A stretch of 64,000 bases of DNA from Thermoplasmata archaeon (GTDB lineage: Archaea; Thermoplasmatota; Thermoplasmata; UBA10834), in the NCBI GenBank assembly GCA_041559015.1, contig JBFFED010000001.1, positions 2,361-66,360 on the forward strand, written 5' to 3'. A model generated the notes under the pieces. That model had not been told where the DNA came from, did no database searches, and saw nothing but the letters and a program-made list of their open reading frames with translations. Shown here in pieces: positions 21,442-52,655 of this stretch (position 1 is the first letter of the stretch; each line of letters opens with the position of its first letter). The position numbers were made by a program, and so were the translations under genes.

Positions 21442-22047
21442 ATGGCTAAGCCCGAAGGGAAGGAAGAGGACTGGTTCTCCCAGCTGGATGAGGAACTCGA
21501 GAAGAAGACCGTCCAGATCACCGACAACTTCGTAGAGCAGAACTCCAAGAAGGGAGATATCAACAAGATGCTCCTTGAGGACTTTTTCAGGATATGGAGC
21601 AGGTTCAACAAGATCAACGTGCACTTCACGATGGCCCCTGAGGCCTCCACATTCGCCACCTTCGCGGTGTATCCCGAGCAGTGGCAGTTCAAGGCCAACT
21701 TCGACTTCGCGGGCGTCGACAACGCGTCCCTGACGGACAGGACCCAGAACAGGGTCGGGGACTCCGTCAAGATCTGGTACTACAACGTCGACAGCCAAAC
21801 GCACTTCCGGATGATCTTCGAGTTCTGCGAGGGCGAGCACTACTATAAGTACGCCGGCTGGAAGAGGATCTTCTCACAGTACGTCCTCCTGGACGTGCCA
21901 GTGATGAAGTTCGACGAGAAGAAGTTTCACGAAGCGCTTGCCGACGTCGTCAAGACCTGGTACGAGAGCCACCTGAGGCGCGACAGGGACATCATCCTGA
22001 AGCACATCAGGGAGAAGTACGAGAAGGCCGAGACATTCACCCAATGA
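21442..22047 (+). CDS. Hypothetical protein (aromatic-rich, no recognised domain)
   Basis: Clean ORF with ATG start. AT-rich TATA-like box (cttatatt) about 35 nt upstream. Coding-like composition. Confidence 0.55.
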   Translation: MAKPEGKEEDWFSQLDEELEKKTVQITDNFVEQNSKKGDINKMLLEDFFRIWSRFNKINVHFTMAPEASTFATFAVYPEQWQFKANFDFAGVDNASLTDRTQNRVGDSVKIWYYNVDSQTHFRMIFEFCEGEHYYKYAGWKRIFSQYVLLDVPVMKFDEKKFHEALADVVKTWYESHLRRDRDIILKHIREKYEKAETFTQ

Positions 22048-23326
22048 CGTGTTTCGGACACTTCTGCGTCCCGGGTGCCGAGAAGTAGTATTCCATCAGG
22101 CACTCCACCCATCTTGACCCGTCCACCAGGTCGAGTCCGATATCGTGGTAGACGAACTGCATCGCCCATTTCCACGATTCTCCGTTGTACGAGGCTAGGC
22201 TGGGCGGGAAGTTGATGTTGAGCCCGCTCGGCACGCCCATGAACCTGTAGCTGCTCCCGTTGTTGAGCAACGCGGCCTCGAAGGCCGCCTGGAACTCCGC
22301 GATGGCGATGTCCAGCGTCGGGTCTATCCCGATCAGGCCCTCGAAGAGCGAGTACGCGTCAGGGAGGTATTCCCAGCCGCCTATGTTCGCCCACATGCCA
22401 TTGAGCGCCAGGTCCCGGACTGCCATTATCGTATCCGCGTTGTCGGCCACCAACGGTTCGAGCGCCTCGGTCATACGTATGAACGCCGCCCCGAACTCGT
22501 CCATTAGCGACATGTCGAATGCGGAGAACGCCACGAAGTCCTTGTCGTACGGGTTGATGTGCTCGTAGAGGGTCTTCGAGCTGTAGTACTCCATGTACAT
22601 GTCGACCATGTCGTGCGCGAGTTCTTCCGGAGACATCTCGGGCTCCGCCACGAGCGCCTCGACAATCATCTGGTATGGCAGGCCGTCATAGGGCACCACC
22701 AGTTGCGAGGCCGCGAACCAGCCAACGGTATCCCGGAGCTCGTACGCGATCTCCACCGCAGCAACACTGCACGCGTCGAGGGCGAGCAGATCCACGCCGA
22801 CGCCGTCGTTCGCGTCCCTGGCATCCCTGATTGCCTGGGCCATGTCGTCTATGAGCATGATCCCTCCGCCGTCCGTGTCGTCCAGGCACACGCCGCGCCA
22901 CGAGTATCCGTGGTCCTGTATGACCAGCAGAGTCTTCTCCGCAGGGTAGTTCTTGAGGCCGTAGTCAATGAACCTCTTGAGCGTCGCCGGGTCGGATGAG
23001 TTCAGCTCCTCCCAGGTCTGCACCGTGAAACACTCGCCGTCGTGTATGTCGTAGACCCATGTGCCGTCCTCCGAAAGGATGTCCACATAGGCGACCAGGT
23101 TCACATCGTCGTCGGATGTGAGCGCTGCCTTCCAGGTCTTGATCGCGAACTCTGTGCAGAACTCGAGGTTATTGTCCGCGTCCCAGTACATGAGCAATGT
23201 CCATTCCTTGACCGGTTCCTCTGTGACCGGTTTGTCCTCGGCGAGCGCAACGGCCGCGCTCGGCAAGGAGAACAACAAGACCACGGTCGCGCATAGCAGA
23301 AGCTCGCCAAATCCAAGACCCTTCAT
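22037..23326 (-). CDS. Secreted clostripain-like cysteine peptidase (MEROPS C11 family)
   Basis: Signal peptide (MKGLGFGELLLCATVVLLFSLPSAAVALA). …MYWDADNNLE…LLVIQDHGYSW…DLLALDACSVAA… gives the His/Cys dyad context of C11 peptidases. Confidence 0.8.
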   Translation of the reverse strand: MKGLGFGELLLCATVVLLFSLPSAAVALAEDKPVTEEPVKEWTLLMYWDADNNLEFCTEFAIKTWKAALTSDDDVNLVAYVDILSEDGTWVYDIHDGECFTVQTWEELNSSDPATLKRFIDYGLKNYPAEKTLLVIQDHGYSWRGVCLDDTDGGGIMLIDDMAQAIRDARDANDGVGVDLLALDACSVAAVEIAYELRDTVGWFAASQLVVPYDGLPYQMIVEALVAEPEMSPEELAHDMVDMYMEYYSSKTLYEHINPYDKDFVAFSAFDMSLMDEFGAAFIRMTEALEPLVADNADTIMAVRDLALNGMWANIGGWEYLPDAYSLFEGLIGIDPTLDIAIAEFQAAFEAALLNNGSSYRFMGVPSGLNINFPPSLASYNGESWKWAMQFVYHDIGLDLVDGSRWVECLMEYYFSAPGTQKCPKHVIG

Positions 23327-23490
23327 ACTGATCCCCCAAGGCTGATACTGAGGCACCATGACGGCTCCGCGCTATATTAAGTCCGTGATTTCGATGGGGT
23401 AGTCAGTACGCAGAAACGTACGTCGGAGGCATGCTGCGGACCGGGCCTTCCGGAGGACGGCGAAGCAGGGGAGAAGAGACGACGCGAGAC

Positions 23491-24114
23491 TCAGGCCCTC
23501 GCCAGCTTGACCAGCCGACGAGTGAGCGCCCCGCCCATGACCGATATGTCCTCCGTCGGGAGCACCTTGCCCGTGTTCGCGTCGAAGAGGATGTTGGCCG
23601 CCGCAGGGACCTCCTCGTCCCCAAGCCAGAGCACGACGACCACGGGCGTCCTCGGGAAGAAGTCCACCTTGAATCCGACAGACCCCACATCTACAGGCTC
23701 GCCCCTCATGGCCTCCCCGATCCCCTTCAATAGGGCCGGCTTTTCACCGAACTCCTTGACGATGACATCCATCGTGCGGGCCTTGAACGCGGGGTAGTAG
23801 ATCGCCCCGCCCTCGAAATCGCGGAAGGTCACCAGCCTGTTGGCCAGCTGGGCCCTGTCTGCGCCTTCGAGATAGTGAAGCACGAGTATCTGCAGGTGCG
23901 GCGGGACCTCCTGACCGCCGGGGCCGAGGTATGCCATGGTCTTGGCCCCGAGGTCGATAGCGCAGTCCTTGTCCATGATCCTCAACACAAGGTTCTTCGT
24001 GCCGGGGACCACGGACAGGTCGAGTGTCTCAGACAGGTGCTTGGAGCTCAGGTATGATGCCTTCTCCCATGCGCCCCTGAGGGGCTCGAGGTTGGCCGGC
24101 TTCTTCAGGTCCAA
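23491..24114 (-). CDS. DUF3786-like protein, co-transcribed downstream of acsE
   Basis: About 207 aa. Sits 16 nt after the acsE stop. Size and cluster context match DUF3786 proteins seen in CODH/ACS and corrinoid gene clusters. TTG start per the track. Confidence 0.5.
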   Translation of the reverse strand: MDLKKPANLEPLRGAWEKASYLSSKHLSETLDLSVVPGTKNLVLRIMDKDCAIDLGAKTMAYLGPGGQEVPPHLQILVLHYLEGADRAQLANRLVTFRDFEGGAIYYPAFKARTMDVIVKEFGEKPALLKGIGEAMRGEPVDVGSVGFKVDFFPRTPVVVVLWLGDEEVPAAANILFDANTGKVLPTEDISVMGGALTRRLVKLARA

Positions 24115-24130: not shown

Positions 24131-24901
24131 TCACGCCCTGAGGAACGAGTGGGCGTAGAGCTTCTGGTTCAGGAGCACCTCGGATGCCTTGACGACCTTC
24201 ATCAGCTCGACATCGTTCGGGTCGACTATCGCCGCGTCGAGGCCGCGCCCCAGCAGCATGGCGAGGTAGGTCCTGTTCAGCAGGCTGCGCTCCTCGGCCC
24301 CGCTCGAAACGTTGCTCAGGCCGACTATCGTCTTCGGGGGAGGCGTGTTGAGAGTTCTGAACGCTGTCAGGGCCTCGCCCAGGACCGGGCACTGCGCCTG
24401 CGCGGCCGATATCGGCAGGACCACCGGGTCGAGGTACACCTTCTCCGGGGAGACGCCCTTGTCCATGGCGGTCGCGAGGAGCGTCATGGCTATCTCCGTC
24501 CTCCCCTCGACCGAGTTCGGGATGCCCTTCTCGTCGATCGTGAGGCAGACGATATCTGCGTTGTGCTCCGCGGCCAGCGGGAAGAACTTCTCCATGCGCT
24601 TCTGCTCAGCGGTCGTGGAGTTTATCATCGGGTCCTTCTTGCAGAGCGCGAGTCCGGCCTGTTGGACCTTCAGCCCTGGCGAGTCGATGCACAGGCGCAC
24701 ATCGGCAATGTCCTGGACCGTCTTAACCAGCCAGGCCATGGCATCCGGCCCGTCGTCCCTGCCTGGACCGGTGTTGATGTCCAGCACTCCCGCGCCGCCC
24801 TTGATCTGCTCCAAGGCCAGGTCCTGGACGAACTTGGCGTCCCTGGCATCGATGGCCTTCGAAACCTGTGGAAACTGACCGTTTATCCTCTCCCCCACCA
24901 C
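24131..24901 (-). CDS. acsE: Methyltetrahydrofolate:corrinoid/iron-sulfur protein methyltransferase (AcsE; pterin-binding DHPS-like barrel)
   Basis: MVGERINGQF…GAGVLDINTG…DAMAWLVKTVQ…DVRLCIDSP… parallels Moorella AcsE (LIGEKING…YLDVNAG…MEWLVRVVQ…DVPLCIDSP). 256 aa. Confidence 0.85.
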   Translation of the reverse strand: MVGERINGQFPQVSKAIDARDAKFVQDLALEQIKGGAGVLDINTGPGRDDGPDAMAWLVKTVQDIADVRLCIDSPGLKVQQAGLALCKKDPMINSTTAEQKRMEKFFPLAAEHNADIVCLTIDEKGIPNSVEGRTEIAMTLLATAMDKGVSPEKVYLDPVVLPISAAQAQCPVLGEALTAFRTLNTPPPKTIVGLSNVSSGAEERSLLNRTYLAMLLGRGLDAAIVDPNDVELMKVVKASEVLLNQKLYAHSFLRA

Positions 24902-25046: not shown

Positions 25047-26948
25047 ATGAGAGGGGGATCTGCTAGGAGGAGCCACAAAATAGTATTCGTGGAGGACCGC
25101 AAGGAGGTCGTGCTCGAGGAGGGCAGGACCGTCCTCGAGGCCTGTCAGGCTGCGGGCATACCCATAGACTCCGTGTGCGGCGGCCGAGGTAAGTGCGGCA
25201 GGTGCAAGGTCAGGGTAACCGGGCACTTCTCCGCGGACCCGAGCCCACTGCTCTCGGAGGCAGAACGGCGCGAGGGGATTGTCCTCGCGTGCCTCGCGAG
25301 GGGTCAGGGGCACCTCAAGGTGCATGTGCTCCCCCGCTCCCGGCTGACGAAACATCAGATACTCACGACCTCGGCCGAGGAGCTGCCAGACCCCATCGCG
25401 CCATGGTGCTGGAAGGAGTTCATCGAGCTCCCCCCGGCGACGCTCTCGGACAACATCGCGGACCTGGAGAGGTTGGCAAGGGCGATGGGCGGAAGGCAGC
25501 TGTCTGTCCCCCTGGAGACCCTCAGGGAGCTCCCGGGGGCGCTCAGGGAGGGCGGATGGAAGGTCACCGTCACGATGTCCGACCTCGGGCGCGGCCCGGA
25601 GGTGGTCAGGGTGGAGCCAGGGGACACTCGCGCTAGGCTTCTCGGGATTGCGGTGGACGTCGGCACGACCACCATAGTCGTCGACCTCGTCGACCTCCTC
25701 ACCGGGAAAGTGCTGGGGACCGCATCAGACTATAACAGGCAGGTCTCCAGAGGGGAGGACGTCATCGCTCGCATGATGCACAGCGAGGAAACGGGCGTGG
25801 AAGATCTCACCGCGCTGGCGAGGGAAACCGTCAACTCGTGCATCGAGTCCCTCCTAGCCGACGAGTCCAGGAGGGCCGGCAAGGCAGTCTCCGCCCAGGA
25901 CATCGTCTCGGCCTCGGTCGCGGGCAACACCGTGATGACACACTTCTTCGCTTGCCTGTCGACCGGGCACGTGCGGCTGGAACCCTACGTTCCAGTGGTG
26001 CACAGGATGCCGGAGTTGAGCGGCGCGGACCTCGGGATGCTCATGAACCACTCGGGGAAGGTCCTGCTGTTCCCTTCCCGAGCCGGGTACGTCGGCGGCG
26101 ATGTCGTGGCGGACGTGCTCGCGAGCGGCATGCACAGGTCGGGCAGGCTCTCGCTCCTGATCGATGTAGGCACGAACGGAGAGGTGGTGCTCGGCACGAA
26201 GGACTGGATCATCACGTGCTCGTGCTCTGCCGGCCCTGCGTTCGAGGGGGCCGAGGTGTCCTGCGGCATGAGGGCCATGGAGGGCGCGATCGACCGCATA
26301 AGGATAAACGATGACCTGTCGACGACATACCACGTGATAGGAGGAGGGCCTCCCCTGGGAATCTGCGGCTCCGGCCTGATAGACCTCCTCTCCGAGATGT
26401 ACACGCACGGGGTCATCGACCGCAAGGCCAGGATACAGGAGCTCGGAGGTGGCAGGACGGTGCCCTCGGAGTCAGGCCTCGCATTCGTCGTCGAGAGGAA
26501 GGAGGAGCTGGGGAACGGAGCGCCGTCGGACATGACGATAACCGATGCCGACCTCCAGAACCTGCTAAGGACGAAGGCGGCGATATACGGTGCTTGCGCG
26601 GTCCTGCTGCGTAAGACCGGGGAGTCGCTCGATGGCATCCACAGGGTGTTCATAGCTGGCGGGTTCGGATACCACCTGGACATCGAGCGCGCGATATCCA
26701 TCGGGATGTTCCCCGACCTGCCCCGGAGGAAGTACACGTTCATAGGCAACGGCGCCCTGGGCGGCGCGAGGCTCGGGCTGTTGTCCAGGAAACGCAGGAA
26801 GGAGGCCGTGGACATCTTCGAGAAGATGACCTACCTGGAGCTGAGCGTCGACAACGAATTCTACAACGAGTTCTCCTCCTCGCTCTTCATACCGCACACA
26901 GACCTGAGCCAGTTCCCCAGCGTGGGCAAGTCGGGGGAGGATGCGTGA
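25047..26948 (+). CDS. Reductive activator of corrinoid Fe-S protein (RACo-like: N-terminal 2Fe-2S ferredoxin plus ASKHA ATPase domain)
   Basis: Plant-type ferredoxin Cys pattern (CGGRGKCGRCKV…LAC). About 500-aa ASKHA/DUF4445-like region with nucleotide-binding Gly loops (…IDVGTNGEVV…, …GICGSG…). Stop overlaps the cooC GTG start. Confidence 0.85.
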   Translation: MRGGSARRSHKIVFVEDRKEVVLEEGRTVLEACQAAGIPIDSVCGGRGKCGRCKVRVTGHFSADPSPLLSEAERREGIVLACLARGQGHLKVHVLPRSRLTKHQILTTSAEELPDPIAPWCWKEFIELPPATLSDNIADLERLARAMGGRQLSVPLETLRELPGALREGGWKVTVTMSDLGRGPEVVRVEPGDTRARLLGIAVDVGTTTIVVDLVDLLTGKVLGTASDYNRQVSRGEDVIARMMHSEETGVEDLTALARETVNSCIESLLADESRRAGKAVSAQDIVSASVAGNTVMTHFFACLSTGHVRLEPYVPVVHRMPELSGADLGMLMNHSGKVLLFPSRAGYVGGDVVADVLASGMHRSGRLSLLIDVGTNGEVVLGTKDWIITCSCSAGPAFEGAEVSCGMRAMEGAIDRIRINDDLSTTYHVIGGGPPLGICGSGLIDLLSEMYTHGVIDRKARIQELGGGRTVPSESGLAFVVERKEELGNGAPSDMTITDADLQNLLRTKAAIYGACAVLLRKTGESLDGIHRVFIAGGFGYHLDIERAISIGMFPDLPRRKYTFIGNGALGGARLGLLSRKRRKEAVDIFEKMTYLELSVDNEFYNEFSSSLFIPHTDLSQFPSVGKSGEDA

Positions 26949-27703
26949 CATTCACTTTCGCTGTGACCGGCAAGGGAGGGGTGGGCAAGACCACCTTCGC
27001 AGCGCTTGCGATCAGGCACATACACGAGGCGACGAAGGAGGTCGTGCTGGCGGTCGACGCCGACCCCAACGCGAACCTCGGGGCGAAGCTGGGGACCGAG
27101 CCCGCGAAAACCTTGGGCGGCATCCGGGAGGACATGCTCGCCAGGGGTGAGGACGAGCCTCCGGCGGGGGTCTCGAAGCAGGAGCATCTGGACTACCAGA
27201 TACGCCTGGCCGTCAAGGAGGGGACAGGCTTCGACCTCCTGACCATGGGGAGGCAGGAGGGGCCGGGGTGCTACTGCTATGTCAACAACATGCTCCGGAA
27301 CATCGTCGACTCCCTCTCGGACAGGTACAAGTACGTGGTCATAGACAACGAAGCGGGCATGGAGCACCTCAGCAGGAGGACCACGAAGGCCTCGGACGCG
27401 ATGTTCGTCCTGTGTGACAGGAGCAGGGGCTCCTTGGCCGCCGCGCAGAGGATATCCCAGCTGGCGGACGAGATGAAGATCCAGATATCGAGGAAAGCGC
27501 TGGTCTTCAACGGGCTCGACCCCGGCGCGGAAGGGCCGCCGTCACAGGCGGTTGAGAGATTCCATGCGGTCTATGGGGTGCGCAGATCGGGGAGGATACT
27601 CTCGAGCGCGGAGGAGACGGAGTCCCTCATGGGGATACCCAGGACCGACCCCGCCTTCACTGACATCGCTAGGGCCGTGGACGCCGAGAGGCTCCGGCGG
27701 TGA
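26945..27703 (+). CDS. cooC: CODH nickel-insertion accessory ATPase CooC (MinD/ParA-type)
   Basis: Deviant Walker A VTGKGGVGKTT. CooC-specific CxC metal motif GPGCYCYVNN. About 250 aa. Confidence 0.85.
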   Translation: MTFTFAVTGKGGVGKTTFAALAIRHIHEATKEVVLAVDADPNANLGAKLGTEPAKTLGGIREDMLARGEDEPPAGVSKQEHLDYQIRLAVKEGTGFDLLTMGRQEGPGCYCYVNNMLRNIVDSLSDRYKYVVIDNEAGMEHLSRRTTKASDAMFVLCDRSRGSLAAAQRISQLADEMKIQISRKALVFNGLDPGAEGPPSQAVERFHAVYGVRRSGRILSSAEETESLMGIPRTDPAFTDIARAVDAERLRR

Positions 27704-27706
27704 AAC

Positions 27707-29041
27707 TCACCCGGAGAGCGTCTTAAGCATCTTCGGCAGGCCCGAGGACTCCCTCGGGCCCACGACCACCTTCATGTCTGTCAGCTCGTTCAGCTTCCCG
27801 CTCATCCTGGTGACCATGCCCGGGATGACTATCTCGTTCCTGGTGCACTTCTCCTTGACCTTCTCCGCCTCTATGAGCGTCGCGACCGACTCCGGCGTCA
27901 GCTTGCCCGCGGCGAACGCGGTCATGACCGACTGGCCGTCGGTGTCGACCACCAGGAGCCAGACGGGGAGCTTGCTCTTCTCTATGTCCGCGCGCACAGT
28001 GAAGTACGTCAGCGAGAAGTTGGTGGTGAACAGCAGGGGCGAGCTGCCTGTGGGCTCGCCCACCGTGTACAGGCCCGCCTTGACCTGTATCGGCACCTGC
28101 GGGTCCGTGAATATGTTCTGCCTCAGCGCCATGAGCGGGTAGACGAACTCCGGGGGCATCTCGTCCATGAGCACCACGGATGAGTACTTCATGACCCCGA
28201 GGACAGCCTTCATCCTGTCCCCTTCGGAAGTGCCGAGAACCGATATGGTCGGATACCCGAGGGGCCTGAACTTCTTCTTCACCGCCGCACGCCTGATGAT
28301 AGTCATGTTCTCCAGCATCTGCCCCGCGGACGACCCCTTGGGCTCCAGCACCAGGTCCGAAACGCCAGCCTTCTTCGCCTTGTCCGCGAGTTCGGCGAGC
28401 TTGCCCAGGTCATCGGCCCCTCCGACCACGAGCGGGAACCCGCACGCCTTCGCCGCCTGGACCATCGCATCGAAGTTGTCCGGGGTCGCCCTGTAGAGCA
28501 GCGGCCTCGCCTCGGCGCACGCAGAAGCGGCCTCTGACATCAGCTTCGGGTCCTCCGTCATGAGCACTACCGGGACGGTCATGGTCGAGGCGTACTTCGC
28601 GGCCTCGAGGAAGTCATCCGGGGTGCCGCTCGAGTGCCTGACGGCCACGGAGTCTATCCTAATCATCTGCCCGACGCGCTCGTAGTAGGTGGCCTTCGCG
28701 TCCTGCATCTTCGCCTTCATCTTCTCGAGGCCCTCGGAGTCGTCGGCTATCACGCCGAGCACAGTCGGGTGGTAGAACGTCTTGTCGTGCCTGAACAGCT
28801 GCGTCTCGTCCCCGATCTTGGCGGGCGAGCCGCTCCAGCCGAATGAGACGAGCCTCACCGGAGGCGCCCCGCTCTCCTCCAGGACGGTCTTGGCCTCGGG
28901 GCTGACGTACGGGCACGCCTCCAGGGCCACCTTCTGGTTTGCCAGCTGCATGGCGAACGCCAGGCAGGTGGGGAACTTGCACTCCCCGCAGTTCTTCTTT
29001 GGGAGGAGCTTGTAAATCTCCATCGCGGTCGGCACGCTCAT
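27707..29041 (-). CDS. acsC: Corrinoid iron-sulfur protein large subunit (AcsC/CdhE, acetyl-CoA decarbonylase/synthase gamma)
   Basis: N-terminal 4Fe-4S motif …KKNCGECKFPTCLAFAMQLA… followed by TIM-barrel and corrinoid-binding regions. Internal ATG (MSVPTAMEIYKLLP) forms an ATGA overlap with the acsD stop. Confidence 0.9.
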   Translation of the reverse strand: MSVPTAMEIYKLLPKKNCGECKFPTCLAFAMQLANQKVALEACPYVSPEAKTVLEESGAPPVRLVSFGWSGSPAKIGDETQLFRHDKTFYHPTVLGVIADDSEGLEKMKAKMQDAKATYYERVGQMIRIDSVAVRHSSGTPDDFLEAAKYASTMTVPVVLMTEDPKLMSEAASACAEARPLLYRATPDNFDAMVQAAKACGFPLVVGGADDLGKLAELADKAKKAGVSDLVLEPKGSSAGQMLENMTIIRRAAVKKKFRPLGYPTISVLGTSEGDRMKAVLGVMKYSSVVLMDEMPPEFVYPLMALRQNIFTDPQVPIQVKAGLYTVGEPTGSSPLLFTTNFSLTYFTVRADIEKSKLPVWLLVVDTDGQSVMTAFAAGKLTPESVATLIEAEKVKEKCTRNEIVIPGMVTRMSGKLNELTDMKVVVGPRESSGLPKMLKTLSG

Positions 29042-29991
29042 CCACCTCCCGCGAGGTCCTTGGCGGCCTGCCGGAAGAGCGTGACCGATTCGGGATGTCT
29101 CATGATGACGATATCCGCCCCCGCGACGACAGCGGAGTAGGCCGTGATGGCCTCCCAGTAGACGCCCCTCTCGTGGCGCGGGCCCTTCTTCGGGTCCTCC
29201 TCCATCACGTCCGGGACACCCCAGGCGCACGACGCGTCACATATGATCGGCATCTGCAGGACAGGGTCCCCTGAGAGGGCGCCCTGCCTGAGCCGCTCGA
29301 TGACTGAGTAGGAGTACTCGAGCCCCATGCCCAGCGCGGCCATCAGCGGGTCGATGATGATATTCTCAGGCTTCACGCCGAAATCGAGCAGCAGGATGTT
29401 CATCTGCTTCGCCAGGTTGATGTCCAGGTTGGAGAACGCGACCATCCCGTGCCCGTTGGCCATCGACGCGGCCGCGAGGGACTTGAAAGCCTTCTCCTCC
29501 GCGAGCCCGATGAAGAGCCGCTCGCCCTTGCCGGCGTTCGATACCGCCTCCATCAGCTTCGCGTCCTTCTCCTCGGAACCACACCCGTAGACGAGCATGG
29601 GCAGCGACACCGACTTCAGGACCTCCTTGAAGAGCGACTCGCACTCCTCGACCGGCCTGTTCTCTTCCTCGGGGTTGGCGGATGCGAGCCTCAGTAGGAG
29701 GGCGTCCGCGCCCCACTCCTTCTCGCACTTCCTGGCCCACTCCACTGGTTCCTTCGCGATCGAGCCCATGGACCCGAGCAGCGCCTCCGGGACGAGCCTG
29801 GGCGTATCCACGACGTCCATGACCACCGCGGGCGGGCGCGAGACATGGCTCTCGAACCTGTTGAACGGCAGCCCGTCCGAGCCCCCTATCACGATGCTCG
29901 AGCTCCTCGTCCCGCCCTGCTCCTTGGTCGCGCCTATGACGACCTCCCGTATCTTGCCCGCAAATCGTTCCTTCGGCACATCGAAATCCAT
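29038..29991 (-). CDS. acsD: Corrinoid iron-sulfur protein small subunit (AcsD/CdhD, delta subunit)
   Basis: 317 aa TIM-barrel protein matching CdhD/AcsD patterns. Sits directly between acsAB and acsC. Confidence 0.85.
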   Translation of the reverse strand: MDFDVPKERFAGKIREVVIGATKEQGGTRSSSIVIGGSDGLPFNRFESHVSRPPAVVMDVVDTPRLVPEALLGSMGSIAKEPVEWARKCEKEWGADALLLRLASANPEEENRPVEECESLFKEVLKSVSLPMLVYGCGSEEKDAKLMEAVSNAGKGERLFIGLAEEKAFKSLAAASMANGHGMVAFSNLDINLAKQMNILLLDFGVKPENIIIDPLMAALGMGLEYSYSVIERLRQGALSGDPVLQMPIICDASCAWGVPDVMEEDPKKGPRHERGVYWEAITAYSAVVAGADIVIMRHPESVTLFRQAAKDLAGGG

Positions 29992-30009: not shown

Positions 30010-33000
30010 TCACTTGATCATAGGTTCCATCGACAAGGCCGGGTGCTGCACCTTCGTCATCCACTCTATGAGCTCCTCCGGCGTCTTGGCGACCGTCTCG
30101 TCCGCGATCTTGTCCACGAAATCGGGCACGCCTACCTCCTCCGAGCGCCTCTTGAGCTCCTCCTTCATGGCCTCCTTGAGGTCCTTCGGCATCCAGACGA
30201 TCCTGAGGAAGCCCCCGTCCGCGCTGATGAACTTCTTGCTGGTGAGGTACTTCCTGCCGATCCCGATGAACCCGGGGGTCTGTATGCCTCCCCCGACCGA
30301 GCCGGCGAGGGTGGAGAAGGTCATACCCATGGGCGTCATGCCAGGGAACTCCCGGTTCACCACCACGACGCCCTGAAGGTCGGGCGACATCCCCACGATG
30401 CACTCGAAGCAGCCACAGGACGTCATCGGGTCCTCGACCATCGTGTAAGCGCTGAACTTCTGTAGCTTGCCGTGGGTCTTCTCAGCGACCGCTTCGTTGA
30501 CGCCCGTCCACTGGCCCTTGACCTCGTCTACTGTCTGCTTCTTGGGCACGGGGCTATTGGGCCCAGTCGGCGCTATCTGGAACGAGGCCTTCGCGTCGAG
30601 CCAGTTGATGGCGCCGCACAGCCCGAGCCTCTCGGGCGTGACTATGCACACGTGCCCCGGGGCGAAGCTCTGGCACAGGGTGCATGTGTAGAATATGTCC
30701 ACGTTCTCGTCCGTCAGGGTCGCGATCCTCGCGTCCCTCTCCTCGTACGCGGCCTTCGCCTCGTCTACATGCTTCCTCAGCTCGGCCTCGTCCGTGATTA
30801 TGGTGACCTCGACCTTGGAGACTATGGCCCCGAATTCCTGCTTGAGCTTGGTCGCGAGAATCTCCCCGAAGTGCTTCAGCCTCAGACCGCTCTTGAACGC
30901 GGACTTGCTTAGCCTGACCCAGAGCAGGTTCCTCTGGCCGGTGTGCCACCCGCCCTCGGCGAAGTTGATGAATTGGTGGAACCTGCGTTCCAGCACCGGC
31001 TCGAAGTCCGGCTGCATGTTCTTGCCGTAGACATGGACTATGATGCCCAGGTGGGTCGAGCCGCCCTCGGGCATCTCGTCGACGTCCTTGCCTATGAGAG
31101 TAACCTTGCCGTCCGAGACCTCCTCCGGGCCGCGCATCCTCAGTAGCTCGAACGCGAGCGTCTTGGACGGGCCGCCGGCCTCGATGTGCATGTCCGGCCT
31201 CCTGATGGTCTCGCCCTCAAACGCAGGGCCGTAAGGAACCGGGAGGTCCATCGCCCCTAGCTTTATCCTGCAGCCCCTGACCTCGATTGCGGTCGCAATC
31301 ATCTCGTCCAAGTTCTTCTGGACGACGTACTTGTCGGGGATGGGCTCGACGTCCTGGTCGGTGATTGTCGGCGAGCCGTTGAACATGACCGCGAACTCCG
31401 CGGCGACCTTGATGTGGTCGAGCGGTCCCAGCTGGAGCACGAACACCTTGGGCCTCTTGGAGAGGTAGTTGTACAGTCCTTCCCGGTCACCCTTCTGTAT
31501 GCCCCCGAACGAGAGCGCTGCCCTGATGGCGAAGTTCAGGCCGTGGATGGCCTGTGTGAACTCCCCCACTGGATAGAGCATCCTGTCAAGGCCCATCGAG
31601 ATACTCTCGTCCTTGAGCTGCTTGATGATGTCGTAGGTCGCGATTATGAGCATGCCCTTGTTCTGGCAGTCCCTGATCATGGCCGCCAGCTTCTTTGGGT
31701 CGCTTGCGCGCCCGACGAACACGGCCGCCCCAGGTATCGTGTCGTCGACGAAGGCGATCCCCAGCTGCCTCAGTATCCTGTCCGGGACGAACCCGCAGTA
31801 CATCGTCCCCTCGTAGGGTGTCTGTGTCTCGATGTACTTGAGCGCCTCGACTATCTCTGCGGCAATCATGGTCGCCTCGCCAGAGGCGACCGCCGCCTCG
31901 AATGTCGGCTCCTCCCTTATCTTGCCCCTCGCCTCGCCCAGGAGCATCGGCAGGTCCCCCAGTCGGGTGCAGTCCCTTCCCAGCCAGGCGAACAGGCTTG
32001 GGAGCTGGTAGCCGGTCTCCGGGAACTCGATCTTCTGGTCGGGGCCGTACTTCCTCAGCGCCCTGCTCAGGAGCACATCAGCGTAACCCGTCGCGATTAT
32101 CGAGCCCTCGATGGCCATCTTGAAGAGCTTTGCGTTCGTGACCTTCTCCCCGGTCGGGACATAATGCGATGCGCGCTCCACCTCGGGGTCCGTGAGGTCC
32201 AGCCGCCAGCGCCTGTACTCGATTGCGGAGTAGAGCCTCTTGGCGGCCTCGTGCCCGTCCTCCTCGAATATGAAGTACCCGCCGTAGACGTCCCTTGCGG
32301 TGTTCTCGAGCACCTCGGTGACGAGCGTGCTCCCGTAAAGGTAGTTCATCGTGCCGACATGGACCGGGAAGCCCATCGTAACCGCCCATGTGCCGATGGA
32401 GACTGCCTTCTCGTGCATCGCCTCCGGGGCGATGGCCACGAAGGGTATCTGGTGGATGTCGACACCCATCCGGTTCGCCACCTCGGTCGCGAGGTTAGAA
32501 TAACGGGGGTTGTCCACGCACGAGCCTATGTGCCACACGCACGGGAGGCCCTCCAGCCCCGAGGCATCCGCGAGCTCCGCAAGGAAGGACTGGAGTCCTT
32601 CGCCCGCGAACTCCTTCGCCTTCGCGGGGTCCATGAACCCGCCTTTCGCGAGCTCGATCGCGTTGCACCCGGTGGTGAGGAGGAGCACATCCCTCTTCGC
32701 CAGCTCTCGCGCTATGGTGAGTACGTCGGAGTCCTCCTTCGCGCGGGTGTTCTTGCACCCGGCGAAGAGCGCTAGCCCGCGGATCCTGCCCTTGACTATG
32801 CAGTCTACCAGGAACTGGAACGGGTCCTCACGATTCTTCTTTGAGAACAGCTCCTTGATCTGCTCGACGCTGAACCCGGCCATCACCGCCGCCGGCTTCA
32901 CGTCCGGTAGGCGCCTGATCTTCCCACGGTGCCTGTATGCCTCCGCTGCGAGTATGAGCACGTCGCGCGCTGAGGCCTTGGCCCGCTCTGGCGTGAACTC

Positions 33001-34209
33001 GATATGCGTGTCCCCGGGGAGCCGGGCGATCTCCTCCGTGCTGATGATCCTGGTGTGGGTGCACCTCGCGAGCTGTGAGAGCGACGGCATGAAGCACTGG
33101 TAATCGAGCACCATCGCGTCCAGCAGGCCGCTCAGGAGGACCAGCTCCTGGGAGGTCACGTTCGCGGCCAACGGGACGCCCTTCCTCATGAGGGTCTCGT
33201 TCCCCGTGCAGCACACACCGACTATGTTGAAGCCCTGCGCGCCGGCCTTGGTCGCGATCTCCTTCATCTCCCTCGCCGCGTCGACCATGATGTCGCTCAA
33301 GAGCGGGTTGTGTCCGTGGACCGCTATGTTGATTGACTTCTCGTCGAGCACGCCCAGATTCGCGCGGCTGAGGATCATCTTCGGCGTGCCGAACAGGACG
33401 TCGCTGAGGTCTGAGGATATCTGGGCGCCAGTGTAATCCGCCAAGGAGCACTTGATGCCCCCGAACAGGAGGGGGATCGGGTCGGCGTCGACACCCATGG
33501 CAGTCCGATGAATCACATCTGATATCGCCGTCTCGATGTTGGTCGGCAGGACAGCATGGGTATCCCACAGATGCATCCTTCCGCGCGTCACTCTGCTCTT
33601 GAGGAAGGAGAGCGGCTCGTGCGTGAACCTCGAGTAATCGTCGAGCGCTGCGAGGGATACCGCTTCCGCGAGGGCCATGCCATCCTTATCAGTTTCCTGG
33701 ATGCCCAGCTTCTTCGCCAACGCCTCCAGCCTGACCTCGTCCGTCACTTTGTAGTCCTTGACCTCACCCTTGGACACTGCGTGCAGCACATGGGCTATCT
33801 CCTTGCCGTGGCCGGAGTGCGAGGCAGTGCCCCCGGCGATCATGCGCACCAGATGCCGGGCGACTATCGTGTAGTCCCGCGCGCCGCATATGCCGCTGGT
33901 CGGCTCCTTGCCCATCGGGTTGATTCTGCACGGCCCCTGGAGACATATCTTACAGCACAGCCCGAGGGACCCGAACCTGCACTGAGCGCCCTGGTTGGCC
34001 GCTCTGTCCGGGAGCGTCTCGATTCCAGCTGCGTGCAGGTCGGTGAACATGGTCGTGCACGAATCGTCCCAGAAGTCGCACGACCACTTCGATTTCTTGT
34101 CAGTCCGCTCCTTCTCGCCCGGTGGTCTCTCGTTCTCGCCAGTGGTCACCCAGACAGCACTCCTAGTTCGCAATGGCGCATGTGGCAACCACTGATAGGC
34201 CCGAGCCAT
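30010..34209 (-). CDS. acsAB: Single-polypeptide fusion of Ni-CODH catalytic subunit (CooS/AcsA-type) and full-length bacterial-type acetyl-CoA synthase (AcsB)
   Basis: Continuous 1399-aa ORF. N-terminal half has CooS signatures (QCRFGSLGLCCKICLQGPCRINP, …SHSGHGKE…, …VHGHNP…, …GVCCTGNE…, …VWHIGSCVDN…). From about residue 685 it parallels Moorella AcsB residue-for-residue (…AIRTYGPD…, …GPAFEGE(S/T)IR…, …TCTLCQSFAPGHVCIVTPER…, A-cluster …TSCGCFEC…, …HPALSMEPM). Confidence 0.85.
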   Translation of the reverse strand: MARAYQWLPHAPLRTRSAVWVTTGENERPPGEKERTDKKSKWSCDFWDDSCTTMFTDLHAAGIETLPDRAANQGAQCRFGSLGLCCKICLQGPCRINPMGKEPTSGICGARDYTIVARHLVRMIAGGTASHSGHGKEIAHVLHAVSKGEVKDYKVTDEVRLEALAKKLGIQETDKDGMALAEAVSLAALDDYSRFTHEPLSFLKSRVTRGRMHLWDTHAVLPTNIETAISDVIHRTAMGVDADPIPLLFGGIKCSLADYTGAQISSDLSDVLFGTPKMILSRANLGVLDEKSINIAVHGHNPLLSDIMVDAAREMKEIATKAGAQGFNIVGVCCTGNETLMRKGVPLAANVTSQELVLLSGLLDAMVLDYQCFMPSLSQLARCTHTRIISTEEIARLPGDTHIEFTPERAKASARDVLILAAEAYRHRGKIRRLPDVKPAAVMAGFSVEQIKELFSKKNREDPFQFLVDCIVKGRIRGLALFAGCKNTRAKEDSDVLTIARELAKRDVLLLTTGCNAIELAKGGFMDPAKAKEFAGEGLQSFLAELADASGLEGLPCVWHIGSCVDNPRYSNLATEVANRMGVDIHQIPFVAIAPEAMHEKAVSIGTWAVTMGFPVHVGTMNYLYGSTLVTEVLENTARDVYGGYFIFEEDGHEAAKRLYSAIEYRRWRLDLTDPEVERASHYVPTGEKVTNAKLFKMAIEGSIIATGYADVLLSRALRKYGPDQKIEFPETGYQLPSLFAWLGRDCTRLGDLPMLLGEARGKIREEPTFEAAVASGEATMIAAEIVEALKYIETQTPYEGTMYCGFVPDRILRQLGIAFVDDTIPGAAVFVGRASDPKKLAAMIRDCQNKGMLIIATYDIIKQLKDESISMGLDRMLYPVGEFTQAIHGLNFAIRAALSFGGIQKGDREGLYNYLSKRPKVFVLQLGPLDHIKVAAEFAVMFNGSPTITDQDVEPIPDKYVVQKNLDEMIATAIEVRGCRIKLGAMDLPVPYGPAFEGETIRRPDMHIEAGGPSKTLAFELLRMRGPEEVSDGKVTLIGKDVDEMPEGGSTHLGIIVHVYGKNMQPDFEPVLERRFHQFINFAEGGWHTGQRNLLWVRLSKSAFKSGLRLKHFGEILATKLKQEFGAIVSKVEVTIITDEAELRKHVDEAKAAYEERDARIATLTDENVDIFYTCTLCQSFAPGHVCIVTPERLGLCGAINWLDAKASFQIAPTGPNSPVPKKQTVDEVKGQWTGVNEAVAEKTHGKLQKFSAYTMVEDPMTSCGCFECIVGMSPDLQGVVVVNREFPGMTPMGMTFSTLAGSVGGGIQTPGFIGIGRKYLTSKKFISADGGFLRIVWMPKDLKEAMKEELKRRSEEVGVPDFVDKIADETVAKTPEELIEWMTKVQHPALSMEPMIK

Positions 34210-34537
34210 GAGTATGGGGGTTCCGCGGGTCGTCTAGCAAGCTGTTCGAAAAGCCGTCCACCGGAAACGCACCCCGTCGGAGGGCGGAGGCGCCGGCGGA
34301 GAAGACCGAGTCTCCACAACGCCCCCAAACGCGGTAGCCAAGACAAATGTCCGGATATTCCGTTGGCTCCAGCCCCCCATTCTCAAAGTATCTGGCCAAG
34401 TGTTGGATGTTGCCTCAGCGCTCGGCATTCGACGAATGCATATGATGCTACTAAAACATTGTTGTTTGACGATGTTCGGCCCTTGCCGATTGCAGGGTTG
34501 GCTGGAGCCGAGCCGGACGGGCGGGTTCTGGATGGGG

Positions 34538-35335
34538 CTAGGGCTGCATGTTCCTTGAAATGGCGTTCGAAAGCTGTCGGACGGACTCAATCCACTCATC
34601 GGCCCCTGGCCCAGCGAATGGTGACCCCCCAGCCAGGTCAGCGGAGGCGACGGTCTCCGAGCGCGGGAGCGCGAAGATGAGCTCCAGCCCACGTCCGGCC
34701 AAGCCACGTTTGACCGAGGCCTTCTCGCCTTCGTTCGCAACCCGGTTCGCGACGACCGCGACCTTGCGTACGCCCATCTCCCCCGCCAGCTCGGCTATCC
34801 TGGCGGCGGTCTCACTCGACCGTGAGCCAGGTTCCACTACAACCAGTAGAAGGTCGACGCCCCGGCAGGTCGCCCGGCCGAACTGCTCAAGCCCGGCCTC
34901 CATGTCCACGACCACGTACTCGTCCCGCTCCAGCACCACGTGCTCGAGCAGGCCCCTCAGGAGGGCGTTCTCGGGGCAGAAACAGCCGCTCCCGGCGGCT
35001 TTGATCGTCCCGAGGACGAGGAGCCGCACGCCGTCCGCCCCGACCCTCGAGTATCTCTCTGGGATGTCGTCCACTCTCGGGTTGAGCTTGAAGAACGGGC
35101 CGGTGCTCGTCCCCGGCCTTGCGCCTGTGCGCTCCTCTATAAGGTCCAACTCGGAGGATATCGGCTGGGGTACGTCCCCCGCATGTATCTCGAGCACCGT
35201 CCTCAGGTGGGCGGCGGGGTCGGCGTCCACCGCCAGCACCCTGTTGCCCTGTCTCGCCCACACTCTGGCCAGCGAGCCGGCGACGGTCGTCTTACCCACG
35301 CCGCCCTTGCCCGAGACGGCTACCTTGAGACCCAA
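34538..35335 (-). CDS. acsF: Second CooC-family nickel-insertion ATPase (AcsF-like, ACS maturation)
   Basis: VSGKGGVGKTT deviant Walker A. CxC motif GSGCFCPEN. 265 aa. Paralog of the cooC at 26945. Confidence 0.85.
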   Translation of the reverse strand: MGLKVAVSGKGGVGKTTVAGSLARVWARQGNRVLAVDADPAAHLRTVLEIHAGDVPQPISSELDLIEERTGARPGTSTGPFFKLNPRVDDIPERYSRVGADGVRLLVLGTIKAAGSGCFCPENALLRGLLEHVVLERDEYVVVDMEAGLEQFGRATCRGVDLLLVVVEPGSRSSETAARIAELAGEMGVRKVAVVANRVANEGEKASVKRGLAGRGLELIFALPRSETVASADLAGGSPFAGPGADEWIESVRQLSNAISRNMQP

Positions 35336-35339
35336 ACTA

Positions 35340-35537
35340 TCAGGCCTTCCTGGGCCTGAGGAGTATCTCGTGCCTCACAAGGTTCGCCTCGGCGAGCTCG
35401 ACGTCCTTGACCGTCCGGATATCGCCCAGGGTGTCCACGCAGTTGATGTCGTTCCCTACAACAAGCACCCTCGCTGCCTCTTGCATGATGAGGTGTTTCT
35501 CAGAACCCTTGACTAGGTAGACCGCAGACTCACACAT
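35340..35537 (-). CDS. cooT: CooT-like small nickel-binding CODH accessory protein (about 65 aa)
   Basis: Internal ATG gives MCESAVYLVKGSEKHLIMQEAARVLVVGNDINCVDTLGDIRTV…. Met-Cys start, size and beta-rich pattern match R. rubrum CooT (MCMAKVVLTK…). Sits between the ACT gene and acsF. Confidence 0.5.
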   Translation of the reverse strand: MCESAVYLVKGSEKHLIMQEAARVLVVGNDINCVDTLGDIRTVKDVELAEANLVRHEILLRPRKA

Positions 35538-35579
35538 TGCATATACCCCACGGAGTCCGGTGCTCACGAGCACATGCGG

Positions 35580-40669: not shown

Positions 40670-41272
40670 CTATCCGAACTCCTTTCTCGACACTGCAAGC
40701 AAGATCAGTCCGGCCAGCGCGAGAACTGACCCCACCAAGAAGCCTATCCCAAGCAGGCCGAAAATGCCGCCAGCGATTGCGAGCCCGAAGTGCTTTCGTC
40801 GAATGCCGAAAATGCCCCCAATGATGGCGACTATCGCGAATACGAGCAGAACCACCCCACACATTGTGAGCATCCCCGCAAGGTCCTCGGCCGTGTACTC
40901 TGCGGGTAGGGCCACGCCTAGATCCTCAATATCGGAGGCGTCGAAAGTCATGTACATCGCCCCCATCACGATGGCCAGCACGCCCGCGATTATCACCAGG
41001 GCGCCACCCACTGCTGGCTTCCAGGTCTTCTGGGTCTGGGCGGACATCCCGAGCGGGATCCTGTAGTCATGCCCGCAATACGGGCATACACTCGCGTCGA
41101 ACTGGATCGGCCTCCCACAGGCGACGCAGTTCCTCGAGCCATACCCTGGATAGGTCGATGACGTCGGTTCGGTCCCTGGGCTGCTGACACCGAATTCCTT
41201 GCCACAGAAGGAGCACGATGTGGATCCGTCCTTGACCAGGCTCTCACAGTACGGGCATTTCCTCAATCTCAT
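40670..41272 (-). CDS. Zinc-ribbon membrane protein (paralog 3 of 3, with two N-terminal zinc ribbons)
   Basis: MRLRKCPYCESLVKDGSTSCSFCGKEF… then CVACGRPIQFDASVCPYCGHDYR, then TM helices. Confidence 0.6.
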   Translation of the reverse strand: MRLRKCPYCESLVKDGSTSCSFCGKEFGVSSPGTEPTSSTYPGYGSRNCVACGRPIQFDASVCPYCGHDYRIPLGMSAQTQKTWKPAVGGALVIIAGVLAIVMGAMYMTFDASDIEDLGVALPAEYTAEDLAGMLTMCGVVLLVFAIVAIIGGIFGIRRKHFGLAIAGGIFGLLGIGFLVGSVLALAGLILLAVSRKEFG

Positions 41273-51497: not shown

Positions 51498-52655
51498 TCA
51501 TGCGTGGAGCGCTGTGAGGAAGTCTCCCCAGCCTGTGTCGGCTGCGAACTGTGTGCCCAGGTAGTCCGTCCCGTACCAATCCCAGTCGTTGCTGCCAGCC
51601 CAATAGAGGGTAATGCCTCCGCAATCACCCATCTTGGGACCTCCCCAGAAGTCAGCAACATATGCCTGGACGTCGGCCCTGACCTGGGTGGTGAGCGACC
51701 TCAGGGTGGTGTCGGTGATGCCGCTCTGGTCCAGCAGGTGGTATGCTAGGTCGTACATGTCGACGTAGTACGGAATCGCTGTCATCGCATGGCTATCACC
51801 GACAGCATCCTCGTAGTCATTCTGATACGATGGCAGCATGTCCAGCATCCTTGCCGACCAGTTCTCGAAGTTGCCAATGCGGGCTTCGAATTCAGCAATA
51901 TCAATCGATGCGAGAGTCATTCTCCCGCCGTTCGTGGGACCGTAGTGCGACCCCCATTCAGAGACCATAACCGCCCCCAATTCCTGCGGCGTCATGGCTG
52001 GATCGTTGACTAGCTCTGTGAGGATATCGTCGAGCGGGAGGCCGTCTCCTGGCCCGTACTCTTCAGACGCAACCATGTACTGAACCATGTCCGTCAGCGA
52101 CAGGGCATAAGCGACCTCCAACATTGCCATGTTGCAGGCATCGAATGCGAGCACATCGACTGTCTCACCGGCCTCTGTGAAGGCACTCTCCAGGTCTGTC
52201 ATGTTGATTGAACTGGCGGAGGTCTCGTCTGTGCAGATGTACTGCCATCCGAAGCCGTGATCCCACAGACTGAGTCCGAAGTACGTGGACGGCCAAAGCG
52301 TCGTCGCACGGTCGACCCACCAAGACAGTGTGGCTGGATCGCCAGTGTCCATCTCGTCATGCGTTTCGATGGTGGTGACTGTCTCCCCAGAAACCTCCAC
52401 GATCTCGATGCCCGATGTGGACTTCATGTCCAGCACAGCAACGAGGTTCACGTCGCTGCTCTCAGGAACCGCCTGCAAGAACGGAAGGGTGGTCTTCTCC
52501 CAATACGGTTCGAGGCTATTGTCCGCGGCTACATAGATGGCGAAGGTCCATGATGCCGTCTCAGCACGGGCTCCCGGTGTGATGAGCATCGCCCCAGGCA
52601 CAATCAGGGCGGCGGCCAACAACACACACGCCGTTCGATTTCTCCTTTCTCCCAT
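51498..52655 (-). CDS. Secreted clostripain-like cysteine peptidase (C11 family), second paralog
   Basis: Signal peptide MGERRNRTACVLLAAALIVPGAMLITPGARA. …IYVAADNSLE…LSLWDHGFGW…DVLAFDACNMA… parallels the paralog at 22037..23326. Confidence 0.8.
   Translation of the reverse strand: MGERRNRTACVLLAAALIVPGAMLITPGARAETASWTFAIYVAADNSLEPYWEKTTLPFLQAVPESSDVNLVAVLDMKSTSGIEIVEVSGETVTTIETHDEMDTGDPATLSWWVDRATTLWPSTYFGLSLWDHGFGWQYICTDETSASSINMTDLESAFTEAGETVDVLAFDACNMAMLEVAYALSLTDMVQYMVASEEYGPGDGLPLDDILTELVNDPAMTPQELGAVMVSEWGSHYGPTNGGRMTLASIDIAEFEARIGNFENWSARMLDMLPSYQNDYEDAVGDSHAMTAIPYYVDMYDLAYHLLDQSGITDTTLRSLTTQVRADVQAYVADFWGGPKMGDCGGITLYWAGSNDWDWYGTDYLGTQFAADTGWGDFLTALHA

Follow-up and report, generated by a model that had tools for sequence, protein, structure and literature searches.

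A conserved archaeal gene family predicted to encode a single-chain, AcsB-type CO dehydrogenase/acetyl-CoA synthase

CO dehydrogenase/acetyl-CoA synthase (hereafter CODH/ACS) is the core enzyme of the Wood–Ljungdahl pathway, and it needs CO to pass between its subunits through a sealed tunnel. In a 64,000-nt stretch of contig JBFFED010000001.1 of a Thermoplasmata archaeon (the whole stretch analysed here is called the window), one minus-strand open reading frame (ORF) appears to specify both catalytic partners in succession, i.e., a CooS-type Ni-CODH followed by an AcsB-type ACS. The question that this locus raises is whether the gene specifies a genuine single-chain enzyme or whether it reflects a faulty assembly, a source of two separate polypeptides or a relic in which one of the halves is dead. 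From sequence comparison and structure modelling, we consider it probable (at about 0.8) that the gene encodes a functional single-chain bifunctional CODH/ACS and belongs to one conserved family, present mainly in Thermoplasmata and Methanomassiliicoccales-related archaea.

The ORF listed for the window (30010..34209) runs over 1399 codons without a stop codon or a frameshift across the domain junction, as an earlier note made from the sequence alone had claimed, and its GC content at third codon positions (GC3 = 0.87) is the same as that of other real genes in the window (window GC 60–64%). The product length of 1399 aa given in that note does not stand. The listed start is an ATG at 34209, while a GTG at 34149 corresponds to ORF codon 21; the latter is most likely the true start, giving a protein of 1379 aa, because the 98% identical database protein P0001 starts there, because AGGAG sits upstream of it and because the two nearest genomes offer no alternative. 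In these genomes (L024 and L027, 94% and 92% identical), the homologous GTG is the sole possible start: a stop codon directly precedes it in L027, and in L024, there are seven open codons on its 5′ side with no start among them. Most other homologs, like P0001, consist of 1379 aa and start at the GTG, and the ATG start with its 1399-aa product is rejected on account of these homolog starts. An exact-sequence look-up of the window protein found no database record. Residue numbers used below follow the 1379-aa frame, and Pfam and NCBIfam spans are given in the 1399-aa ORF numbering.

Judged by domains and cluster ligands, both halves are complete, the CooS module as well as AcsB with its three domains. 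Pfam places the Prismane/CODH domain at ORF residues 84–651, followed by three AcsB domains: CODH_A_N (PF18537; 714–793), CdhC (PF03598; 989–1143) and ACS_CODH_B_C (PF19436; 1155–1398). The NCBIfam models agree with the assignment of the two halves made in the earlier note, with TIGR01702 (CooS) matching ORF residues 48–671 at 651 bits (cutoff 478) and NF040764 (AcsB-type alpha/beta) matching residues 700–1398 at 965 bits (cutoff 800); the cdhA model TIGR00314 is failed by the window protein (59.9 bits vs. a cutoff of 781). In a search against the PDB, the best relative of the C-terminal half was the Carboxydothermus hydrogenoformans ACS (7zkj_B; E = 1e-247), aligned end to end over ACS residues 19–728, and the Moorella thermoacetica ACS chain was also aligned end to end (E about 1e-241). 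The N-terminal half, alignable with CODH-II/III, was closest to the C. hydrogenoformans CODH (7zkk_A/7zkj_A; E = 1e-187), likewise end to end. All solved relatives found in this search are separate chains, in keeping with the earlier statement that the subunits are separate in characterised systems.

The metal-cluster ligands were assessed in an alignment of the window protein with 115 full-length fused homologs (116 sequences in all). No variation is seen in the C-cluster ligands H278/H280, C313/C314, C352, C465, C495 and C544 or in the catalytic K581, and the B/D-cluster cysteines C57, C65, C66, C69, C74 and C88 are kept in at least 90% of the sequences. Also invariant are the A-cluster residues C1156, C1159, C1168 and C1178 ([4Fe-4S] and bridging Cys; nt 30616–30684), the C1245-G1246-C1247 triplet within SCGCFEC (nt 30400–30420; in the earlier note, CGCFEC) and F1162. 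Among 25 close relatives, dN/dS is 0.16 for the CODH module and 0.10 for the ACS module. In bacterial enzymes, the A1 domain docks on CODH and carries the CO tunnel; this docking domain is present in the window protein (PF18537), as had been predicted.

Two peculiarities of these modules may be recorded in passing. Near the N-terminus, the motif KWSCDFWDDSC (residues 21–40; window 34030–34090, minus strand) has two cysteines, C24 and C31, which are kept in about half of the family, while close relatives carry three (KWSCTCWDDSC), one of which the window protein has lost; a Cys3 motif at the N-terminus was noted by Inoue et al. 2019 (PMC6344411), and the three-Cys close relatives agree with it. 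In some fused homologs (L079:1917-7604, as well as P0080 and P0096 with 1894–1896 aa), a 538-aa LAGLIDADG intein is inserted exactly before the Cys equivalent to C1159 (YTCTL / Cys...Asn / CQSFAPGH). P0132, an AcsB that is not fused, carries an intein at roughly this position too.

The two modules are joined by a 26-aa linker (LDLTDPEVERASHYVPTGEKVTNAK; residues 649–674), which lies at 32128–32205, where the earlier note had put the junction (nt 32100–32200). It is the least conserved internal segment in the 116-sequence alignment, and its length varies across the family (20, 26, 28, 29 or 31 aa) by in-frame indels only. The linker dN/dS, again among the 25 close relatives, amounts to 0.32, and the segment is therefore relaxed, yet translated under constraint (purifying selection). 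In the alignment with the C. hydrogenoformans chains, it stands in for ~13 residues at the C-terminus of CODH and ~18 at the N-terminus of ACS; its material is thus that of the natural CooS and AcsB termini. We modelled residues 1–975 (CODH, linker and A1) with AlphaFold2 (mean pLDDT [predicted local distance difference test] 85.9; pTM [predicted template modelling score] 0.90). The linker has pLDDT values of 84–96 with a short helix at 655–661; on this prediction, the tether is ordered and packs against the rest of the protein instead of forming a floppy loop.

How widespread this architecture is was addressed by a word-indexed search of 5.8 billion protein clusters, the database search for single-chain AcsA–AcsB proteins that the earlier note had proposed. 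It yielded ~118 clusters at 90% identity with the four-domain architecture (1300–1434 aa; 56–98% identical over 93–99% of the query), derived from NCBI, JGI, ENA and Logan assemblies; many of these homologs are named for both enzymes at JGI and for one or the other at NCBI. The window protein shares the features of this family, i.e., a single ORF of about 1360–1390 aa with the four domains and the conserved RRW...LF[KQ]MAI junction in the same register, and falls inside it in the trees of both halves. In a genome scan with one genome per GTDB species, at least 62 of the best 80 species-level genomes (of 250 relatives) have an intact ORF of at least 1300 aa across the junction; ORFs broken by frameshifts, Ns, inteins or contig ends (L070, L053, L059 and L078) were counted neither for nor against. 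Some of the intact ORFs lie in chromosome-level records (CP070748.1, CP070732.1, CP070629.1, CP070751.1, CP070739.1, OW818644.1, OY970393.1 and others). An exhaustive HMMER scan of 1.84 billion 50%-identity representatives (query residues 180–1379) returned one full-length fused representative, P0121 (1375 aa), and fragments; every other strong match is an AcsB or a CooS that stands unfused. This makes the fusion one lineage-specific, moderately diverse family and no widespread recurrent event.

The titles of the carriers are overwhelmingly Thermoplasmata, Thermoplasmatota, Methanomassiliicoccales, or broad Euryarchaeota/Methanobacteriota, and the nearest genomes (L024 and L027) are Thermoplasmata or Thermoplasmatota metagenome-assembled genomes (MAGs). 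A few labels, all of them taken from MAG records, speak against such a confined distribution (Bathyarchaeia, Halobacteriota, Methanomicrobia and one Acidiferrales bacterium); these discordant carriers could reflect mis-binning or wrong labels, or else a horizontal spread that has taken the fused gene outside Thermoplasmatota. The fused genes of the discordantly labelled MAGs L046, L069, L059/L074 and L041 are near-identical to genes of bog/fen “Euryarchaeota” MAGs.

Close relatives in which the two genes are separate were found at five loci of a Thermoplasmata subclade (L075, L076, L077, L082 and L081; ~68% identical to the query), where a CooS of 677–680 aa ending in TGA is followed by an AcsB of 718 aa. 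In four of the five, the stop and start codons overlap by 4 nt (ATGA) in different frames, with GGAGGTGA located ~8 nt upstream (e.g., L075:3880-3925); in L081, a short spacer takes the place of the overlap. As judged from the sequence, the ATGA overlap and Shine–Dalgarno motif of these four loci make up a textbook translational-coupling junction. The tail of the split-clade CooS (LGIxxDxExxYWTGET...) shares homology with the fused sister group's linker (YWDGTT..ERPKLTQ) and has 14–17 extra residues, which contain the Shine–Dalgarno motif and the stop/start. Pyrrolysine and selenocysteine are in use in related archaea. In-frame TGA/TAG read-through at the split loci was considered and is excluded by the different frames, the ATGA overlap and the Shine–Dalgarno motif that AcsB has of its own.

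These split loci bear on the most trivial explanation of the window gene, namely that a missed stop or a 1-nt indel at the junction has merged separate cooS and acsB genes during sequencing or assembly, since a single-base error at a 4-nt overlap of this kind could mimic a fusion. However, the window junction does not have the insertion with Shine–Dalgarno motif, stop and start that marks the split loci, the length variants of the linker are all in frame and the linker is under purifying selection. The fusion also recurs at the same alignment position in ~118 independent clusters and, across many projects, in at least 62 genomes at species level, closed chromosomes among them. An assembly artefact is thereby effectively refuted. 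A relic in which one module is catalytically dead, leaving a CODH only or an ACS only, has a precedent in a related lineage, where P0124 carries a degenerate CODH remnant and P0125 has no CODH (see below). It is nevertheless very improbable for the window protein, in which, as in its 115 homologs, the ligands of the C-, B-, D- and A-clusters are invariant or at least 90% kept, and both modules have the low dN/dS values given above; next to the fusion lie the genes for CooC and CooT, the chaperones for Ni insertion, as well as the entire set for the corrinoid Fe–S protein and its methyltransferase.

The single-chain reading is more exposed at another point: the fused ORF might be real and the cell still contain two polypeptides, made by internal initiation near M678 or by cleavage of the linker, which would leave an ordinary alpha2beta2 enzyme. 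The linker is the most variable segment, a Met directly follows it (LFKMAI) and the AcsB of the split clade starts at the homologous position. Weighing against a single chain are also the facts that it is known here from genes and a predicted structure, that the AlphaFold2 model was computed from an 82-sequence alignment for a truncated construct as a monomer and that internal translation initiation or linker proteolysis could yield two chains. On the other side, no Shine–Dalgarno-like motif occurs at a suitable distance before M678 in the window, the predicted linker is ordered and packed and forms no exposed loop, and the frame has been kept across 56–98% divergence, which would be needless if only separate products mattered. 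We thus regard the production of two chains as improbable, and prefer the reading of a functional single-chain CODH/ACS.

The evolutionary relations of fused and split forms were addressed with neighbour-joining trees for each half (corrected p-distances; 100 bootstraps). Fused and split archaeal sequences are monophyletic with respect to unfused representatives (bootstrap 98 for CODH and 100 for ACS). The split clade is itself monophyletic (100); it joins 29 fused sequences (support of 99 for CODH and 49 for ACS), together constituting the sister group of 41 other fused sequences, including the window protein. The shared register of the junction favours a single fusion, and most likely, on these sequence data, the fusion arose once, from an overlapping, translationally coupled cooS–acsB pair in an archaeal lineage with a bacterial-type Wood–Ljungdahl module; it looks as if it was later reversed by fission in one subclade, via the 14–17-codon insertion. 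Against this scenario count the distance-based method of the trees, the CODH tree, in which two independent fusions cost exactly as few steps as a fusion followed by a fission, and the backbone support of only 42–55% in the ACS tree, which favours fission.

The nearest unfused AcsB outgroup is P0125 (NCBI MCL2606954.1, labelled Methanomassiliicoccaceae; L083:6001-8193), which has no neighbouring CooS. Its relative P0124 (991 aa; L084:6001-8976) can be aligned without a break from CODH residue 548 across the linker and on to the AcsB C-terminus, but there is no Prismane match, and its C-terminal CODH remnant is degenerate and devoid of ligands. The P0124/P0125 lineage keeps AcsD, AcsC, the CooC-like ATPase and RACo. 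By its sequence, P0124 is a fused chain with a decayed CODH domain, and CODH has most likely decayed or been lost in this Methanomassiliicoccaceae side lineage. P0124 is a hint that the fused state may predate the 75-sequence clade of fused and split forms. Tentatively, and in our estimate rather doubtful than probable, the single-chain enzyme could be ancestral to the whole AcsB-type CODH/ACS radiation in Thermoplasmatota-related archaea; the re-split operon, with its 14–17-codon cassette of Shine–Dalgarno motif and stop/start, and the CODH-less ACS of host-associated Methanomassiliicoccaceae would then be derived forms, and the ordered linker would lock A1 permanently onto CODH. If that reading were true, nature would have supplied in this family a minimal CODH/ACS that cannot dissociate, of use in structural studies and in the heterologous engineering of CO2 fixation.

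The features of the locus are listed in Table 1. By domain annotation, the fusion gene sits in a complete bacterial-type carbonyl-branch cluster; besides the genes for CooT and the first CooC-like ATPase, a gene for an ACT-domain protein is located upstream. Gene order is the same around an 86%-identical homolog, and around a 56%-identical homolog, the core order is kept and genes for MTHFR (methylenetetrahydrofolate reductase), Hdr/Mvh-like proteins and formate dehydrogenase adjoin. No CdhB-like gene was seen in the cluster. An Rfam scan of the window found two tRNAs only.

Table 1. Features of the fusion gene and its surroundings (positions are those of the window).
Feature	Position	Strand	Remarks
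cooS–acsB fusion gene	30010..34149	-	1379 codons + stop; 151.4 kDa; likely GTG start
CooS-type Ni-CODH module	32206..34149	-	residues 1–648
Linker	32128..32205	-	between invariant RRW and first AcsB helix
AcsB A1 domain	31225..32127	-	residues 675–975 approx.; PF18537
AcsB A2 + A3 domains with A-cluster	30013..31224	-	Pfam, alignment
Conserved non-coding block	34418..34466	-	AACAACAATGTTTTAGTAGCATCATATGCATTCGTCGAATGCCGAGCGC; inside the 388-nt cooC-to-fusion spacer (34150–34537)
cooC-like Ni-insertion ATPase gene	34538..35335	-	upstream, same orientation as the fusion; Pfam
cooT, Ni chaperone gene	35340..35573	-	Pfam
acsD, delta subunit of corrinoid Fe–S protein	29038..29991	-	317 aa, short bacterial length; NF003376, 348 bits vs. 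280
acsC, gamma subunit of corrinoid Fe–S protein	27707..29035	-	FeS + CdhD domains; NF003195, 516 bits vs. 306; start inferred from a 442-aa homolog in L001
Second CooC/AcsF-like P-loop ATPase gene	26945..27703	+	Pfam
RACo/AcsV-like gene, reductive activator of corrinoid protein	25047..26948	+	Pfam
acsE-like gene, methyl-tetrahydrofolate:corrinoid/Fe–S protein methyltransferase	24131..24901	-	NF005719, 282 bits vs. 259
DUF3786 protein gene	23491..24114	-	syntenic with the cluster in close and distant homologs

The non-coding block in the spacer upstream of the fusion gene is kept across relatives, although the flanking spacer has diverged. Inside it are an AT-rich, TATA-like segment and the palindrome GCATTCG-N-CGAATGC (34425–34439), whose arms match perfectly and of which there is a copy with one mismatch at 40792–40806 (0.21 matches expected by chance). 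The block may be the archaeal promoter and operator of the fusion gene, a reading that implies a 5′ leader of ~270 nt.

Elsewhere in the window, there are two clostripain-family (Peptidase_C11) genes (22037–23359 and 51498–52655, both on the minus strand), one of which adjoins the Wood–Ljungdahl cluster; the relative L001 also has a Peptidase_C11 gene near its cluster. A PurP-type gene (DUF1246/DUF1297) occurs at 10100–11170 (minus strand). PurP is an archaeal purine-biosynthesis enzyme and marker, and its presence agrees with an archaeal host. The claim that a bacterial-architecture ACS resides in an archaeal genome thus stands as to the facts (the nearest genomes are Thermoplasmata, PurP is present, AcsD is short and CdhA and CdhB are missing from the cluster) but not as a novelty, AcsB-type ACS in Thermoplasmata-related archaea having already been published (see below).

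By analogy with the bacterial enzymes, the fused chain would dimerise via its CODH core, where the D-cluster cysteines are kept, into a (CooS–AcsB)2 particle of ~303 kDa, the counterpart of the alpha2beta2 enzyme that Moorella and Carboxydothermus possess. At the C-cluster, CO2 would be reduced to CO, and CO would pass through the internal CODH/A1 tunnel to the A-cluster; AcsE would charge the AcsCD corrinoid protein from methyl-tetrahydrofolate, and the A-cluster would condense CO, the methyl group and CoA. The tether would fix a 1:1 stoichiometry, impose co-translational assembly and docking, and keep A1 permanently docked, with A2 and A3 staying mobile and free to open and close.

What is encoded here is a real and conserved single-chain CODH/ACS, an architectural variant of a well-known enzyme mainly in one archaeal lineage, catalogued but with no characterisation found. 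The case is more ordinary than it seemed at first, because the fusion is neither unique nor entirely undescribed, and it extends rather than overturns our understanding of the enzyme, because it is lineage-restricted, already present in databases and in line with the well-known pattern by which interacting subunits become fused. Its value is for the specialist, who finds here a CODH/ACS tethered by nature, its catalytic partners permanently joined without the loss of any catalytic residue, along with split and decayed relatives that are informative. With one gene and a fixed 1:1 stoichiometry, the enzyme is a simpler target to express, to solve the structure of and to use in synthetic designs for CO2 fixation. 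Fused, re-split and CODH-decayed forms exist among close relatives and amount to a natural experiment; comparing them could reveal where the advantage of the tether lies, be it in assembly, in CO leakage or in stability when energy-limited sediment archaea express the enzyme at a low level.

The statement of the earlier note that no example of such a fusion had been described can be upheld in part only. In Supplementary Table 1 of Inoue et al. 2019 (Front Microbiol; PMC6344411), two proteins, OGS41472.1 and OGS44063.1, from Euryarchaeota archaeon RBG_16_62_10 and RBG_13_57_23, are annotated “fused with ACDS beta subunit” (ACDS, acetyl-CoA decarbonylase/synthase) and assigned to clade F; their D-cluster is given as type II, and a Cys motif is recorded at the N-terminus. 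Our locus L040 comes from RBG_13_57_23 and shows 80% identity to the window protein. These entries are of the same family and architecture, but they consist of a single line of annotation on two sequences that are truncated or partial (1275 and 989 aa) and do not analyse distribution, linker, evolution or function. Beyond this supplementary table, a full-text search of the searchable literature retrieved no description of a CooS–AcsB fusion, nor a main text that discusses the fused enzyme or a report on its structure or biochemistry. As to whether such fusions are common and already characterised, a point raised in the earlier note, they are common within one lineage, with no characterisation found.

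AcsB-type ACS as such is documented for Thermoplasmata and their kin. It has been published for Thermoplasmatota and Methanomassiliicoccales (PMC13370988), for UBA10834 (bioRxiv 10.1101/2020.03.09.984617) and for Yaplasmales (PMC9239135). The latter two, papers on MAGs, list the genes but do not remark on the fusion, and the first, a 2026 preprint on ACDS, covers only archaeal AcsB and prismane–CdhC fusions. A Methanomassiliicoccales pangenome paper does not mention the fusion.

Other fusions of CODH/ACS subunits do exist. We found AcsB–AcsD (P0130 and P0133; 1209 and 1225 aa), AcsD–CooS (P0192; 1122 aa), pyridine-nucleotide-disulphide oxidoreductase–AcsB (P0131; 1024 aa) and DUF166–CooS (P0146; 878 aa), and a Desulfomonile tiedjei protein is annotated as AcsD–CooS in Inoue et al. 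(PMC6344411). Partner fusion is therefore a recurring theme in CODH/ACS, but partners and order differ from those of the window protein, and none of these proteins joins the two catalytic subunits that share the tunnel.

Compared with the archaeal ACDS (CdhABCDE; Methanosarcina), the overall chemistry is the same, and the A2/A3 A-cluster domains and the C-cluster are homologous. ACDS, however, combines a CdhA-type CODH (~800 aa, with extra Fe–S domains), the model of which the window protein fails, with the epsilon subunit CdhB, and its CdhC has two domains and no A1, whereas the window protein has A1. As far as sequence goes, the window enzyme is not an ACDS.

The likeness to the bacterial CODH/ACS (AcsA/AcsB; C. 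hydrogenoformans 7zkj/7zkk and M. thermoacetica 1mjg/1oao) is close throughout. Both have the same CooS-type CODH with C-, B- and D-clusters and the same three-domain AcsB with its A1 domain and an A-cluster of Cys4 and Cys-Gly-Cys, the halves aligning end to end, and both are served by the same accessory set of AcsC, AcsD, AcsE, CooC and RACo. They differ in that the bacterial enzymes consist of separate polypeptides, while the window gene specifies one polypeptide with a 26-aa linker, predicted to be ordered, in an archaeal host. By sequence, the window enzyme belongs with the bacterial AcsA/AcsB, from which it departs only in the feature of separate subunits.

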